Positions 7,394 to 19,132 of a stretch of DNA of 45,074 nucleotides are shown one piece after another (within the stretch, counting starts at the first letter, position 1; each line of letters opens with the position of its first letter). The notes below the pieces were generated by a model. It saw nothing but the letters and a program-made list of their open reading frames with translations, was not told the DNA's origin and searched no databases. A program made the translations under genes and the position numbers. The DNA comes from a virus (taxonomy: Duplodnaviria > Heunggongvirae > Uroviricota > Caudoviricetes). The stretch is from the IMG/VR virus record IMGVR_UViG_2908567220_000008, positions 1 through 45,074 of that record. The stretch is one strand, 5' to 3'.

Positions 7394-8212
7394 TTAGTTA
7401 AAATTAAGGCTTTTCCCGGCAGCGACTAACATATGATCGTAGTATTTAGACATATCTTCGCTACTTAGCAAGTTGAAGACATTGTCAGCATAACCTCCAA
7501 CCAAGTTAAGTTGCTGAGAGTGCGCTTTTTCCTGAGGTGTATCAGCAGCATAAACCACAAAAGTCTTCACGCAGTTATTCCACTTGGTCTTAGCTGCGTT
7601 TATTGTCACAGCTTTAAACGCTGACTCACCCATTTTTTGGCGATTATTGGAAATCCGTAGATCTAAGGTTTCAGTTAAATGATAAATTCCATTTTTTAGT
7701 AAAAGTTCAGCATAAAGACCTTCAGATTCAGAAAGCGGATACCCCTGAACCACTTTATGCTCGCTAATTTCCTTGAGATTCTTACCCATAACTCCTTCTT
7801 TTTCAAACCTATCCTTAAGCTCGGTAATAATTCTTTTTTGAGAAACTTCAGTTCTTTTCTTCGCTCGCTCAGGTGTTATGAATAATTTATTTAATTCATT
7901 GATTTTTAATTCATATTCACGTTCATTGGCAGCATGAAATGTACCTACGCTTGACAAGGCAAAGCTACCTTGGAAAAAGAGAGAAGCCTGTTCGATGCTT
8001 AAGCCAGAAGTTAAAATAGTCTCCAGTTGCTTCTGGCTATTTTCTAATGCTTCAAGCCCAAAATCATTTGTAATAGCTTTTAGTTTAGTAGGGGTTTCTA
8101 TGACGCGCACATCTGGGCCAGATGGCTTCATGACGACAAGGCCAACGTTGATTGTCTCGGCGCGGACAGGGTTCGGTGTTATTCTGACAATACTGTATTT
8201 ATATGTATTCAT
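7394..8212 (-). CDS. DUF3037-like protein (272 aa), partner of the HipA-like kinase
   Basis: N-terminus YSIVRITPNPVRAETINVGLVVM resembles the DUF3037 family (from memory, needs HMM confirmation). ATG overlaps the kinase stop (ATGA). Visibly AT-rich. Confidence 0.6.
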   Translation of the reverse strand: MNTYKYSIVRITPNPVRAETINVGLVVMKPSGPDVRVIETPTKLKAITNDFGLEALENSQKQLETILTSGLSIEQASLFFQGSFALSSVGTFHAANEREYELKINELNKLFITPERAKKRTEVSQKRIITELKDRFEKEGVMGKNLKEISEHKVVQGYPLSESEGLYAELLLKNGIYHLTETLDLRISNNRQKMGESAFKAVTINAAKTKWNNCVKTFVVYAADTPQEKAHSQQLNLVGGYADNVFNLLSSEDMSKYYDHMLVAAGKSLNFN

Positions 8213-9033
8213 TTCAGCACCTCCCCTCTAACAGTGTCGATTCGTTTCATTCTGCCGTCGCTTGACCACCAGGTTAGCAGAGCATCCCTCTGCAAAGGAT
8301 TGATCCATGCTTCCGGCATGTCTTCAAAAATCCGTTCTATCGTGCTAGAGCTAATTCTGGATAGCTTATCCAATACAGCTTCCGCAGGCGCTTTACACGA
8401 AACATCATTATATGTCAACTGCTTGATCGCTTGCCAGCAGTTTGTGGTGTTGTAGCCCATTGGTATTAGGGCTGCGTCGGTTTTGTTCGGCCAACCCATA
8501 ACCATAGCTGCAAGGCTGAAATCGAAGGCTTGGATAGTCAGGTTTCCATATCGGTTCTTAGTGTACAGATAGTTACCAATATGCCTATCAATATTAAATA
8601 CGAACTGATCGAAGGCGTAAACTGACCATACTTGCTTCCGTAGAATAGAAGGTCCGGACATCAATTCAGCGGCAAAGTTAATTTCTTCTTGTGGCTTACT
8701 CATGGCAGCCAGGTCATATTTTGATCCAAAAAAGTGCTCTCCTGTATCCGGGTCAATCAAAACCCTACAGGCCGGGGTAGGAAGCCCACTAAATTCAGCA
8801 AGTTTAGTACATAGCCATTCTGATGCTGGAATTTGCTTTGGGTGGGGAATCCCTGTCAAAGCGGATGCATCACCATCAGAAACCCCTTTTATTGCATACT
8901 CTAAACCGTCGGAGGCCATAACTGTATGCCTTAGGTGAGCTGTGCCCATTGCTGGCTTATAATCCACAATCTCAAGACTAAACAAGGGTTCTTGAATAGT
9001 AATGTTCTTTTCAGGTTGTGAGTCTTCTTCCAT
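8209..9033 (-). CDS. HipA-like / CtkA-like atypical kinase-fold protein (274 aa)
   Basis: FNIDRHIGNYLY matches the N-x-D-x-H-x-x-N catalytic-loop pattern of HipA-family kinases (E. coli HipA has D-x-H-x-K-N). AT-rich coding sequence. Confidence 0.6.
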   Translation of the reverse strand: MEEDSQPEKNITIQEPLFSLEIVDYKPAMGTAHLRHTVMASDGLEYAIKGVSDGDASALTGIPHPKQIPASEWLCTKLAEFSGLPTPACRVLIDPDTGEHFFGSKYDLAAMSKPQEEINFAAELMSGPSILRKQVWSVYAFDQFVFNIDRHIGNYLYTKNRYGNLTIQAFDFSLAAMVMGWPNKTDAALIPMGYNTTNCWQAIKQLTYNDVSCKAPAEAVLDKLSRISSSTIERIFEDMPEAWINPLQRDALLTWWSSDGRMKRIDTVRGEVLK

Positions 9034-16023: not shown

Positions 16024-16160
16024 GCCGTGACGTTATCGAACGCATCCGCGACCGCTGGCAAAAGCTTCGCCTCCTGCGTAGCCGCGGCACCGTGCTGGTC
16101 GACTACAAAATATTACGCAATTTCGTCCGTATCTATAAGCGCCTGGGAGAAGCAGCATGA
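16020..16160 (+). CDS. Small protein (46 aa), YlcG-like by position
   Basis: Hand-translated [46 protein letters not shown]; overlaps the rusA stop and the Q start. Confidence 0.45.
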
Positions 16161-16846
16161 CAGCTCAATACTTGGAATTTGTTCGCCAGCAGCTGATAGT
16201 GGCCACCGCCGATCTGAGTGGTGCGACGAAAGGGCAACTGGTAGCTTTTGCAGAGAACGCGCAATTTACCGCTACGGCGCGCAGCCGTGGCCGGAAGAAG
16301 GTGTATAGCGAGGTGAAGCAAAAAATGGTTAACCCGGATGGACCGCCGATGAGCGGCAGCCAGTGCCGCGCTAAGGGTTCCTCAATCGCTCTCGTTCTGC
16401 CCGTTGAATACTCGACAGCCAGCTGGCGCCGCGCCCTCCTGTCGCTGGAAGACCACCAGAAATCCTGGTTGCTGTGGAACTACAGCGACAATATCCGCTT
16501 TGAGTATCAGGTAGCGATAACACAGTGGGCATGGGAAGAATTCCGTGATCAACTCGGCGCTAAGAAAGTGGCCGGCAAGACGATGGAGCGGCTGAAGAAA
16601 CTGATATGGCTGGCGGCACAGGACGTGAAAGCAGAGCTGGCGGGTAAGTATGTATATCAGCACCAGGACCTTGCAGCCCTGTGTGGCGTTAAGCCTGATA
16701 ACTGGTGCCATAACTACGCTGATTACTGGCGGGCTATGTGCGCCATTTTTAAGCGGCTTGATAGCGACTCTCTTCTCTGTGCTGTGAGAACACGATCACA
16801 ACAAAAAGCGACTTTTTCGCAGCAGGGTCTTGCAAAAGTCAATTAA
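16157..16846 (+). CDS. Late-gene antiterminator Q-like protein
   Basis: 229 aa, last gene before the lysis region and followed by a short terminated leader; resembles lambdoid Q-family antiterminators (recalled). Confidence 0.65.
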   Translation: MTAQYLEFVRQQLIVATADLSGATKGQLVAFAENAQFTATARSRGRKKVYSEVKQKMVNPDGPPMSGSQCRAKGSSIALVLPVEYSTASWRRALLSLEDHQKSWLLWNYSDNIRFEYQVAITQWAWEEFRDQLGAKKVAGKTMERLKKLIWLAAQDVKAELAGKYVYQHQDLAALCGVKPDNWCHNYADYWRAMCAIFKRLDSDSLLCAVRTRSQQKATFSQQGLAKVN

Positions 16847-16935
16847 ATACGTCATATTTGAGTCTACTTTGATATGCTGCCTTAACTTTAAGTGGCGGCA
16901 TGAAGATGATAGTCATATACCAGTTTGTAAAATTA

Positions 16936-16962
16936 GCCTCGGCAATCCGCCGGGGCTTTTTT
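16936..16962 (+). terminator. Intrinsic terminator (tR'-like) downstream of Q
   Basis: Stem gcctcggc / gccggggc (one mismatch), loop aatcc, then tttttt. Confidence 0.5.
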
Positions 16963-17407
16963 ATGCCTGCGATCCGGTCAGGGCTCTTGGGTAGAGACGT
17001 GCTGCACGACACGTCAAAGCCCTTCCGCGCAGAGCCCTGAACCAGATTGAAGTTACTCAGCAATAAGAAAACTGCATGTCATCATTTGCTTATATCTTAT
17101 TGACCAGAAAATTAACATGTTGTTAATCTATTCGTGTGGTGAATTCCCCTATGCGGAGGGGCGACCAGTCACTTACAGTGATCTGTAAATGCAGCGCGGG
17201 CCATGTCGACTGGGACATGCTCACTGGGAGGCACCCGGCACCATAATGCAATGCTACATAAGCTATTTGATAGTGGGGTTGCCGTTTCGGCTTCTCCAGC
17301 TATGTTTAAAAGGTAGTAACGGAAAACGAGCGCTCTCCTGGTAAATCGGAAGCTCGGACTATTAGGTGCGCCTCGAACCGTTGAAGAATCAGTATTTCCT
17401 ACCTTCT

Positions 17408-17434
17408 GCCCGCCCCTCTGAGCGGGCTTTTTTT
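17408..17434 (+). terminator. Intrinsic terminator upstream of the tRNA pair
   Basis: Stem gcccgc / gcgggc with an 8-nt loop, followed by ttttttt. Confidence 0.5.
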
Positions 17435-17499
17435 CGCCTAATTCAGGCAAAACCATAAAGCATTAAGGGCTGCGCTATTTCGCGGCCTTTTTCATTTCA

Positions 17500-17574
17500 G
17501 GGTCAGAAGCACAGCGGTTGTGCGTTCGGCTGTTAACCGAATGGTCGAAGGTTCGAATCCTTCCTGTCCCGCCA
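17500..17574 (+). tRNA. tRNA-like gene, anticodon GTT (Asn) by manual folding
   Basis: 75 nt with encoded CCA; T arm gaagg-ttcgaat-ccttc; anticodon loop ctGTTaa; acceptor stem has one T-T mismatch, so it may be atypical or a pseudo-tRNA. Confidence 0.5.
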
Positions 17575-17579
17575 AATTA

Positions 17580-17656
17580 GCGCCATTAGCTCAACCGGAG
17601 AGAGCAATAGCCTTCTAAGCTATCGGTTTCAGGTTCGAGTCCTGAATGGTGCACCA
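17580..17656 (+). tRNA. tRNA-Arg (anticodon TCT)
   Basis: 77 nt cloverleaf folded by hand: acceptor gcgccat/atggtgc, D stem gctc/gagc, anticodon stem atagc/gctat with loop ctTCTaa, T arm tcagg-ttcgagt-cctga, encoded CCA. Confidence 0.75.
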
Positions 17657-17790
17657 GATAATGGCCTGACCTGATAACGGGTTCATACCCCAACTTATCA
17701 GGGGCGTTGCTGCAACAGCGTCACAGGCCGCCAGACCCAGCTAGGGTATTTTCGGTCATCACCGACATTGCTATTACCCTCATGCTTATT

Positions 17791-17814
17791 GCCTGCCTAA
17801 CCGCAGGCTTTTTT
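17791..17814 (+). terminator. Intrinsic terminator after the tRNA pair
   Basis: Stem gcctgc / gcaggc, loop ctaacc, then tttttt. Confidence 0.5.
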
Positions 17815-17925
17815 ATTTTCAGGGTCGCGGGAATCACCCTCGACGCTTTGTTGGTAAATCAGCCCGACGGCCCTGAACCTTTTACTGACTACAGATAGCA
17901 CCCCGAACATTATCGGAGGTGAGAG

Positions 17926-18240
17926 ATGCAACGTATGAACCCAACCGATGGTCACAATCTGCCTTACTGGTGGTCAGCCTTGCTTGGTATCTTTTCCGTC
18001 CTGAGTCTGCAGGATTATGTCTTCATCATTGGCGCCCTGATCTCTGCCTTCTTCACAATCAAGACGTATTACGCAAAGCGCAAGGAAGAGCGAGAGCGAC
18101 TGGATGAAGAGAAAAAACGCACGCAGCTGTTGGCCAGTTATCTGGCTGATGTCTCCGCAAAGCCTGGAGGTGACCGCCCGGCTTCAGCCGAAGTGGTAAC
18201 CGAGGCCTTGAAGCGGATCGCAAGTGATACACAGGGGTGA
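17926..18240 (+). CDS. Holin, two-TM class
   Basis: 104 aa with two hydrophobic helices ([29 protein letters not shown]) and a charged C-tail; strong RBS ggaggtgagag; first gene of the lysis cassette. Confidence 0.7.
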
Positions 18241-18746
18241 GCATGACGCCATCAATGAGGAATAAACTGATTGGCGTGATCGCCGGCGGCGGTGGCGCCA
18301 TAGCCATTGCCTCTGCGCTTATCACTGGCCCAACTGGTAACGATGGTCTTGAAGGTGTGCGCTATGACCCCTATCAGGATGTGGTAGGCGTCTGGACTGT
18401 CTGCTATGGCCATACTGGCAAAGACATCATGCTCGGCAAGAAGTACACCGAGGCTGAATGCCGTGCGCTGCTCAGCAAAGACCTGAACACCGTTGCTCGC
18501 CAGATTAATCCTTACATCCAGAAGCCGATCCCCGAGACAATGCGCGGGGCTCTGTACTCGTTCGCGTATAACGTTGGCGCTGGCAACTTCCAGACCTCCA
18601 CGCTGCTGCGAAAAATCAACCAGGGCGACCAGAAAGGCGCATGTGACCAGTTGCGCCGCTGGACCTACGCCAAGGGCAAACAGTGGAAAGGCCTGGTAAC
18701 TCGCCGCGAGATTGAGCGCGAAGTTTGTCTCTGGAGTCAAAAATGA
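18237..18746 (+). CDS. SAR endolysin (T4-lysozyme-like glycoside hydrolase)
   Basis: N-terminal Gly/Ala-rich signal-anchor-release helix ([21 protein letters not shown]) and catalytic E-x8-D-x5-T motif ([17 protein letters not shown]). Confidence 0.85.
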
Positions 18747-19132
18747 GCCGGTTAACCGCCATTATCAGCGCCATTGCGATCTGCCTGGTTGTTTGCCTTG
18801 GTTGGCTGGCAATGCATTACCGCAACGCTGCTGCTGAGCAGAAAACCAGAGCCGATAGCGCTGAGCAGCAGGTAAACGCAGCACAGGCGATCACCTCCAA
18901 CGTTCTGACCACCATGACCATCTTCAACACCATCGCCGAGGCCAATCAGCATGCAAAAGAGCAGATCGCACTGGACGCATCGGGAGCCTCGGCTGATATC
19001 CGGGTTGCTGTTGCGAATGATGATTGCACTAATCGCCCTGTCCCTGCTGGCGCAGTTAAGCGGCTGCAACAATTCGCGAACGGTCTACGTCAAAGTGCCG
19101 GTAGTCCCGTTACCGGCCAGCCTGACGGCTGA
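18743..19132 (+). CDS. i-spanin (Rz-like)
   Basis: N-terminal TM ([20 protein letters not shown]) then a periplasmic helical domain; ATG overlaps the endolysin stop. Confidence 0.7.

Follow-up and report, generated by a model that had tools for sequence, protein, structure and literature searches.

Does a transfer RNA (tRNA) gene with a mispaired acceptor stem, carried by a phage between its antiterminator gene Q and its lysis genes, still give a working tRNA, and what would the phage use it for? The locus that raises this question lies in the IMG/VR record IMGVR_UViG_2908567220_000008, a Caudoviricetes sequence of 45,074 nucleotides (nt) that was analysed in full and is referred to here as the window. 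The original prediction, made from the letters alone, had placed two adjacent tRNA genes there, one of them with a T-T mismatch, and had left undecided whether the latter was functional or a decaying copy. From the evidence below, both are likely elongator tRNAs that function and that the phage carries as cargo in its late-operon leader, dependent on Q, with the expression, processing and charging of the pair predicted from sequence and relatives. The arrangement itself is already known, since it is the documented late-operon tRNA array of lambdoid and P22-like phages, and these genes are already annotated publicly. What resembles a broken tRNA is in fact conserved and very probably works, in textbook position. 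The puzzle left over is that the constant member of the array decodes a common amino acid without marked codon enrichment.

Identity and Structure of the Two tRNA Genes

ARAGORN found exactly two tRNAs in the window, tRNA-Asn(gtt) and tRNA-Arg(tct). In an Rfam cmscan of the whole window, the same two genes matched RF00005 with 63.9 bits (E 1.1e-11) and 67.5 bits (E 1.1e-12), respectively, and no further RF00005 tRNA match was obtained across the 45 kb. Both scores are far above the gathering score of 29 bits, and by this measure both genes are bacterial elongator tRNAs. The location and the anticodons given by the original prediction were thus confirmed, and the covariance-model scoring that it had proposed as a check accepted both genes. 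Its order was reversed, however: tRNA-Asn comes first and tRNA-Arg second, with a 5-nt spacer between them and the CCA end encoded in both. Nor does the pair directly follow Q, since Q ends at 16846 and tRNA-Asn begins 654 nt further on.

tRNA-Arg is the clean gene that had been described, with all stems canonical and seven of seven acceptor-stem pairs formed. It has every conserved tertiary nucleotide checked (U8, A14, G18 G19, T-loop GTTCGAnTC, U33 and a purine at 37). In tRNA-Asn, six of the seven acceptor-stem pairs are formed. One non-standard pair was flagged by cmscan, which the sequence locates at T4 opposite T69 (GGGTCAG/CTGTCCC), so the reported mismatch is real. The minimum free energy fold of this tRNA is a cloverleaf with a 1x1 internal loop (-26.1 kcal/mol), and the computed value for a U4A repair is -30.1 kcal/mol, a gain of about 4 kcal/mol. 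The tertiary set is the same as in tRNA-Arg save U8: position 8 (window 17507) is A instead of the near-universal U, and position 21 is U. The 5′ segment AAGCAC recurs in the tRNA-Asn of a T5-like Aeromonas phage and of a Felix-O1-like phage. Since A8 and this segment are common to T5-like and Felix-O1-like tRNA-Asn, an old phage lineage of tRNA-Asn is suggested.

The identity of E. coli tRNA-Asn for asparaginyl-tRNA synthetase (AsnRS) resides in G34, U35, U36 and the discriminator G73, and that of tRNA-Arg for arginyl-tRNA synthetase (ArgRS) in A20, C35, U36 or G36, and A73 or G73. The window tRNA-Asn has the GTT anticodon and G73, the latter also found in all family variants recovered. In the window tRNA-Arg, the D loop AACCGGAGA puts A at position 20, and a TCT anticodon is combined with discriminator A, which is replaced by G in the tRNA-Arg(UCU) of Mulock and KPC2phi6.1. 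Charging of both tRNAs by the host enzymes is proposed because these identity nucleotides (GUU and G73; A20, C35, U36 and A73) are present.

Comparison with the host tells the phage genes apart from cellular ones. The E. coli-type tRNA-Asn shares the anticodon, the anticodon-loop sequence, G73 and the encoded CCA with the window gene, but differs in the acceptor stem (UCCUCUG/CAGAGGA, with a Watson-Crick U4:A69), in having U8 and in the anticodon stem. The host argU has the anticodon, the anticodon-loop sequence and the encoded CCA in common with the window tRNA-Arg. Judged from their sequences, the phage tRNA genes are not recent copies of host genes.

The Acceptor-Stem Mismatch in the tRNA-Asn Family

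An acceptor stem with a U·U opposition, and A instead of U at position 8, are what one might expect of a decaying pseudogene, and one distantly related jumbo-phage copy is indeed annotated as a pseudo-tRNA. The family to which the window gene belongs was examined. A pattern scan of IMG/VR in which positions 4 and 69 were left free returned at least 119 contigs, which together with six annotated phage loci and the window gave at least 124 tRNA-Asn copies. Their 20 distinct variants fall into three sub-lineages: the window has type A, Mulock and ST101-KPC2phi6.1 have type B, and type C is identical in phages 21, Sf6, SfI, HK446, mEp506, ST64T, L and BTP1. The sub-lineages differ at about a quarter to a third of positions. 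In addition, 18 further records were found in a species-representative genome set, including two gut bins of metagenome-assembled genomes that are probably mis-binned; the genera represented include Escherichia, Enterobacter, Citrobacter, Serratia, Cedecea, Lelliottia, Atlantibacter, Phytobacter, Apirhabdus and Symbiopectobacterium.

For the pair counts, cloverleaf positions were assigned in each variant. Nine pairs distributed over all four stems (6:67, 7:66, 11:24, 27:43, 28:42, 29:41, 49:65, 50:64 and 51:63) vary at both positions and are kept as pairs in 19-20 of the 20 variants listed, and this covariation indicates that the cloverleaf is under selection. Position 4:69 behaves differently, with T·T in 18 of the 20 variants listed, T·C in one and a Watson-Crick pair in one, the last being an outlier gene in a 197-kb contig with a quite different tRNA array. 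Among the species-representative records, 17 of 18 have T·T and one an independent T·C. No copy with restored 4:69 pairing was found in sub-lineages A, B and C, from which more than 140 copies were recovered. The mismatch has persisted in phages from ten or more enterobacterial genera, among them the classic phages 21, Sf6 and L.

In a broader sample of 94 distinct viral tRNA-Asn(GTT) from outside the family, 4:69 is a Watson-Crick pair in 82 cases, U·G in 8, and U·C and U·U in 2 each. U4·G69 predominates in the nearest outgroups (T4-like and jumbo phages, FBKp34, one T5-like copy and one close type A relative). As U4 is found there with non-Watson-Crick partners, a mispaired U4 appears to be an old habit of phage tRNA-Asn, of which the U·U form became fixed in the lambdoid/P22-like array family. 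Since repair of U·U needs a transversion and both changes seen at position 69 are transitions, the mismatch may also have persisted neutrally.

The substitution pattern points in the same direction as the covariation. Both window tRNAs show 0 differences in 152 positions relative to Klebsiella phage 2 LV-2017 and to E. coli Ec1117, whereas the remaining non-coding columns in the gap contain 77 differences in 928 (2 LV-2017, p = 9e-6) and 32 in 788 (Ec1117, p = 0.006). The tRNA-Asn sequence of the window is identical in prophages of Klebsiella, Enterobacter, Serratia and E. coli while their flanks diverge. Neither stem-breaking changes nor a flank-like substitution rate, as would mark a pseudogene, is therefore seen in tRNA-Asn. 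With 63.9 bits, nine covarying stem pairs, a mismatch common to three diverged sub-lineages, identical sequences across the prophages of several genera and family members known to be transcribed, the decaying-copy option of the original prediction is scarcely credible and was discarded. As far as sequence comparison can tell, the mismatch is a tolerated, lineage-fixed trait of the tRNA-Asn family and not damage, and the tRNA-Asn gene is conserved and very probably working.

A more extreme stem was noted among the phages compared: an annotated Felix-O1-like tRNA-Asn(gtt) (L129, 301-376; Enterobacter phage phi63_307) has three consecutive U·U oppositions at 4:69, 5:68 and 6:67 (GGGTTTG/CTTTCCC), also present in Erwinia Ea214-like phages.

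Array Architecture among Relatives

Of 5426 complete E. coli genomes, 30 carry the exact 157-nt pair, annotated there as tRNA-Asn and tRNA-Arg. The pair is also present in several records of related Klebsiella phages, and some of these list the two tRNAs in their annotation. In all of the at least 127 arrays found through tRNA-Asn, this gene is the first unit, followed by Thr(tgt), Arg(tct), Gly(tcc), Phe(gaa) and Met/Ile(cat) in various combinations. A second search used the window tRNA-Arg as query to remove the bias towards Asn. Of 83 arrays recovered in this way, 57 start with Asn, most commonly in the Asn-Arg form of the window (43), while 13 are Ile/Met(cat)-Arg, 9 Thr-Arg and 4 Arg alone. 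Asn is thus not obligatory in these arrays but is first whenever present, and comparison with relatives shows that units are gained or lost exactly at tRNA boundaries.

One group of close relatives comprises the Klebsiella phages 2 LV-2017, Kp4856-1, ST11-VIM1phi8.1, ST101-KPC2phi6.1 and Mulock and the prophage of Ec1117, with a Q-lysis region 94-97% identical to that of the window. Where present, their type A tRNA-Asn and/or tRNA-Arg are 100% identical to those of the window, and several of the records annotate tRNA-Asn/tRNA-Arg. They differ in whole units only, having Asn alone, Asn-Arg, or Asn-Phe-Thr-Arg with a type B Asn.

A second comparison is with the ileZ-argN-argO type of tRNA cluster, located 3′ of Q in Stx prophages and further lambdoid prophages of E. 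coli O157, and with the Ile(CAU)-Arg(UCU) pair of Klebsiella phage RothC. Both have rare-codon tRNAs (for AUA and AGA) between Q and the late genes, as in the window. The tRNA-Arg(UCU) of RothC is identical to that of the window, and the O157 prophage gene agrees with it in 60 of 77 positions (78%) and shares its anticodon loop, A20 and A73. Unlike the window, these clusters have no tRNA-Asn and Ile(CAU) comes first, and in Stx phages toxin genes follow.

Codon Usage

Codon usage was compared between a heuristic set of 62 window genes (13,228 codons) and 45 annotated chromosomal genes of E. coli Ec1117, a strain with the identical tRNA pair. A 10-kb host flank (L243) also served as a codon reference, and the host comparison covers E. 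coli-type sequence only. AGA is found 6.4 times per 1000 codons in the phage and 1.0 in E. coli (odds ratio 6.3, p = 3.5e-14). The codons read by Thr-UGU, Gly-UCC and Ile-CAU of sister arrays are enriched 1.6- to 2.5-fold, with frequencies per 1000 codons in phage and E. coli of 12.5 and 5.6 for ACA, 10.9 and 6.9 for GGA, and 9.2 and 3.7 for ATA. Codon supply fits tRNA-Arg(UCU) and most array members. The suggestion of the original prediction that rare-codon tRNAs are carried here is borne out for tRNA-Arg(UCU), by the excess of AGA over the host. Asn codons (AAC + AAT) amount to 43.9 per 1000 in the phage and 39.1 in E. coli, a 1.13-fold difference (p = 0.048), and are not rare codons, so the label of rare-codon tRNA does not suit the Asn gene.

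The Late-Operon Setting and the Proposed Mechanism

The elements between Q and the lysis genes are collected in Table 1. Q, both tRNAs and the holin-like open reading frame (ORF) are all on the plus strand, which is the position of a late-operon array. The flanking genes had been correctly named as Q and lysis genes: Q and the endolysin have clear Pfam matches, and the holin-like and spanin-like ORFs stay below the Pfam cut-offs. The E. coli homologue of the spanin-like ORF is annotated as DUF2570, with an Rz1-like LysC embedded.

Table 1. Features of the Q-to-lysis region, with positions in the window.
Feature	Position	Strand	Basis
Q antiterminator gene	16157-16846	+	PF06323 Phage_antiter_Q, 265.9 bits
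Candidate late promoter PR′ (TTGCAA and CATATT, spaced by 17 nt); overlaps the stop codon of Q	16830-16858	+	Inferred from sequence
First terminator-like hairpin with T-run, tR′-like	16935-16957	+	Hairpin scan
Conserved long hairpin	16966-17050	+	Fold z = -3.87
STnc100-family small RNA homologue, between PR′/tR′ and the tRNAs	17107-17301	+	RF02076, 70.6 bits (cut-off 47)
Terminator-like hairpin	17408-17427	+	Hairpin scan
Terminator-like hairpin with T-run, ending 9 nt before tRNA-Asn	17465-17490	+	Hairpin scan; positional equivalent of phage 21 tR′
tRNA-Asn(GUU), type A; U4·U69, A8, G73, CCA encoded	17500-17574	+	ARAGORN, Rfam, positional parsing, fold
tRNA-Arg(UCU); stems all canonical, A20, A73, CCA encoded	17580-17656	+	ARAGORN, Rfam, comparison with relatives
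Structured downstream block, common to arrays ending in Asn or Arg	17657-17925	+	Folds; relatives
Terminator-like hairpin within the downstream block	17791-17808	+	Hairpin scan
Long hairpin within the downstream block	17818-17877	+	Fold z = -4.75
Holin-like ORF, first lysis gene	17926-18240	+	Weak PF16080 match below cut-off; RothC homologue annotated holin
Endolysin	18237-18746	+	PF00959, 158.4 bits
Spanin-like (DUF2570) ORF	18725-19132	+	Weak PF10828 match, below cut-off

The gap between Q and tRNA-Asn is a mosaic, in which a block with PR′, tR′ and the long hairpin, as in type B arrays, is followed by an STnc100 block, as in the Asn-only phage, then by Asn, Arg and the common downstream block. 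The segment 16800-17050 shares 96% identity with L003, in which the array comes immediately afterwards, and the homologue of the long hairpin abuts tRNA-Asn directly in type B arrays. The STnc100 module (17121-17499) is common to the Asn-only Klebsiella phage ST11-VIM1phi8.1 and absent from type B arrays. An element similar to the candidate promoter (TTGCAA-17-TATATT) lies 5′ of the terminator and tRNA-Asn in other type A contexts. The leader at 16864-16965 and the segment 17657-17800 on the plus strand gave fold z values of -3.5 and -2.8, respectively.

A documented member of this group is phage 21, whose record has a curated pR′, a Q-binding element, a transcription start, a sigma-dependent pause element and the terminator tR′ (PMID 1704887). 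In that record, a type C tRNA-Asn with U4·U69 begins one base after tR′ and is followed by tRNA-Thr and the S21 holin. The same layout has been described in phage L, where the route of expression was called unknown (PMC8022706), and phages L, Sf6 and ST64T have been described with the same architecture (PMC8022706, PMC2629481). Together with SfI, HK446 and BTP1, these phages share with the window the placing of the tRNAs between Q and holin on the same strand, and the candidate PR′ and terminator-like hairpins of the window would correspond to their PR′ and terminator. They also share an Asn(GUU) in first place with an identical acceptor stem (GGGUCAG/CUGUCCC, with U4·U69), G73 and encoded CCA, and a hairpin with T-run directly 5′ of tRNA-Asn. 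The window differs from them in its type A tRNA-Asn (A8, differences in the D arm and in the anticodon and T stems, and a variable loop of 5 nt), in having Arg(UCU) instead of Thr(UGU) as second tRNA, and in an insert of about 540 nt, including the STnc100 homologue, between PR′/tR′ and the array. In addition, its Q is of the PF06323 family and not of the Q21 type of phage 21. In cultures of BTP1 lysogens, two central tRNA genes were set apart from five other genes above 100 transcripts per million (PMC7067206). That family members are expressed and active has thus been shown in the literature, by the transcription of the BTP1 tRNAs and the in vivo activity of the phage 21 tRNA-Thr.

In the mechanism proposed for the window, RNA polymerase would start at the putative PR′ just after Q, and only the Q-modified polymerase would pass the terminator-like hairpins at 16935, 17408 and 17465. 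By homology with phage 21, the tRNAs would be transcribed along with the mRNA of the lysis and virion genes. Their 5′ ends would be cut by RNase P, 3′ trimming of the 5-nt spacer would expose the encoded CCA, and host AsnRS and ArgRS would charge them. tRNA-Arg(UCU) would then supply the decoding of AGA, which is used about six times more than in the host, and tRNA-Asn(GUU) would add to the Asn-decoding pool as the constant, promoter-proximal member of a modular array. The other units (Thr-UGU, Arg-UCU, Gly-UCC, Phe-GAA and Ile-CAU) would come and go as whole tRNA units.

Several observations weigh against this mechanism. The PR′ assignment relies on a consensus match at 8 of 12 positions, below the threshold of the consensus scan, and on homology. 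PR′ is separated from the tRNAs by three hairpins and a small RNA module, and the tRNAs may be transcribed from another promoter, such as that of STnc100. A8 and U4·U69 are both unusual and may affect the charging or stability of tRNA-Asn. Late-gene-specific enrichment of AGA, as would follow from the predicted boost of late-gene translation, was not found among the window genes: AGA density is lowest in the late genes, at 5.1 per 1000 compared with 8.6 in the early-right genes, and both AGA and AGG are missing from the major capsid gene. The benefit may therefore fall mainly on early and accessory genes, transcribed before a Q-dependent tRNA appears. The host has several asn genes, and with Asn codons only 1.13-fold more frequent in the phage, supply and demand fail to explain why Asn is constant.

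This last point, together with the position of the gene, leads to a different explanation, in which tRNA-Asn would act mainly as punctuation: an RNase P site after tR′ that severs the leader and terminator from the late mRNA, or sets its 5′ end or stability, with decoding secondary. Asn is first in every array that has it, including the 57 of 83 found through tRNA-Arg, and it stands right after a GC-rich hairpin with T-run in all type A and type C contexts examined, although the sequence of the hairpin is not conserved. In phage 21, the tRNA starts one base past the annotated terminator, and Asn codon demand is hardly raised. However, any tRNA would do as an RNase P site, yet G73 is found in every copy recovered, including those found by pattern-free BLAST; the conservation of the GUU anticodon cannot be scored in the same way, being fixed by the search patterns or by selection of Asn calls. 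Arrays without Asn also exist (Ile-Arg, Thr-Arg and Arg alone), and in type B contexts the tRNA is preceded by a different hairpin without T-run. A role mainly as punctuation is therefore regarded as very improbable, and decoding by functional elongator tRNAs is retained as the preferred explanation.

The long hairpin at 17818-17877 begins with TTTTCAGGGTC, the same junction as precedes tRNA-Asn. From this repeated junction, a further tRNA remnant at 17815-17880 was considered and rejected, since the segment gave no match to the tRNA model even at E up to 5 and folds as a long hairpin. STnc100, a prophage small RNA, has been related in a 2026 preprint to the PasD small RNAs of pathogenic E. 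coli.

Possible Counter-Defence and Other Possible Roles beyond Decoding

The most serious rival of the decoding explanation is counter-defence, in which the array would give nuclease-resistant replacements for host tRNAs cut by prophage or plasmid tRNases (P2 Old, HepS, colicin-type). It is compatible with codon supply and would explain the carriage of a tRNA that is not rare, such as Asn. The main target of P2 Old is tRNA-Thr(UGU), several other tRNAs being cut too; the same study compared the cleavage kinetics of host tRNA-Asn(GUU) with those of tRNA-ThrU, listed Arg tRNAs among those inactivated or cleaved, and reported that the tRNA-Thr(UGU) of phage 21 rescues cells from P2 Old (PMC12445682). 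This protective tRNA gene adjoins a tRNA-Asn with U4·U69. Most Thr(tgt) genes of sister arrays have no CNG motif and a 4-bp anticodon stem, as reported for P2 Old-resistant phage tRNA-Thr. Cleavage of Thr, Ile and Ser tRNAs by HepS of Gifsy-1 (PMC13043305) also fits the idea.

For Asn itself the signs are mixed. The paired CNG of the host tRNA-Asn (28-30/40-42) is lost in type C and shifted by one pair in the type A gene of the window (29-31/39-41), which would favour escape, but type B keeps it in the host register, so no consistent escape pattern runs through the Asn family. The window tRNA-Arg has no paired CNG. Escape from P2 Old by loss of CNG in Asn was not retained as an explanation, as the pattern is inconsistent across sub-lineages. 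Moreover, the window has no Thr gene, and both of its anticodon loops have the usual sequences (CUGUUAA in Asn, CUUCUAA in Arg). We know of no nuclease that is defeated by a change at 4:69, which also counts against counter-defence. Finally, the P2 Old screen yielded only Thr(UGU) tRNAs (PMC12445682). On balance, counter-defence is considered unlikely as the reason for the array.

Decoding by functional elongator tRNAs remains the preferred explanation, and one further thought can be added to it. The U4·U69 mismatch and the fixed first position after a terminator overridden by Q could themselves be selected, giving tRNA-Asn a job beyond decoding, a conjecture that we hold to be decidedly doubtful. 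If it were true, tRNA-Asn could be a replacement that escapes a host or prophage tRNA nuclease acting on tRNA-Asn, or it could be a processing signal for 5′ maturation of the late transcript, in which the weakened acceptor stem would tune handling by RNase P, at the CCA end or by the synthetase. As a phage tRNA-Thr of the same arrays defeats P2 Old, tRNA-Asn merits consideration next for a role in counter-defence or processing.

The Thr(tgt) genes that usually come after this tRNA-Asn in sister arrays (for example L007, 6609-6684; L003, 1914-1989; and L331, which is phage 21, 981-1056) have the anticodon stem GTCGC/GCGAA. There is no paired CNG in this stem, and G27 lies opposite A43, which leaves four base pairs.

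Integration Site and Possible Accessory Regions

The window begins at the integrase gene, no recognisable host genes were noticed in it, and its group of temperate phages occurs in Klebsiella, Enterobacter and E. coli. The same integrase is encoded by prophages that adjoin yecE-cmoAB-torYZ-argS, with the host junction beside yecE. In a 2026 preprint, tRNA matches near prophage small RNAs were read as integration-site remnants. This origin was rejected for the window tRNAs, since they are complete genes with CCA, lie 16 kb from the integrase at the prophage edge and are co-oriented with the late operon, and since the junction is beside yecE.

Two further regions of the window stand out by their composition. 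Between the repressor region and the early-left operon, a gene pair of low GC content (42%) at 7394-9033 on the minus strand may be a moron or a defence cassette; its same-length counterparts in contigs with the same integrase have weak Pfam matches to HipA_2 and DUF3037. The right end (39000-44200) is also low in GC (40-46%) and holds an acyltransferase gene (PF01757) at 40229-41320 on the minus strand and an insertion sequence (IS) element with an rve-type transposase at 43022-44193. It resembles accessory or serotype-conversion cargo, either disrupted by an IS or with an IS behind it.

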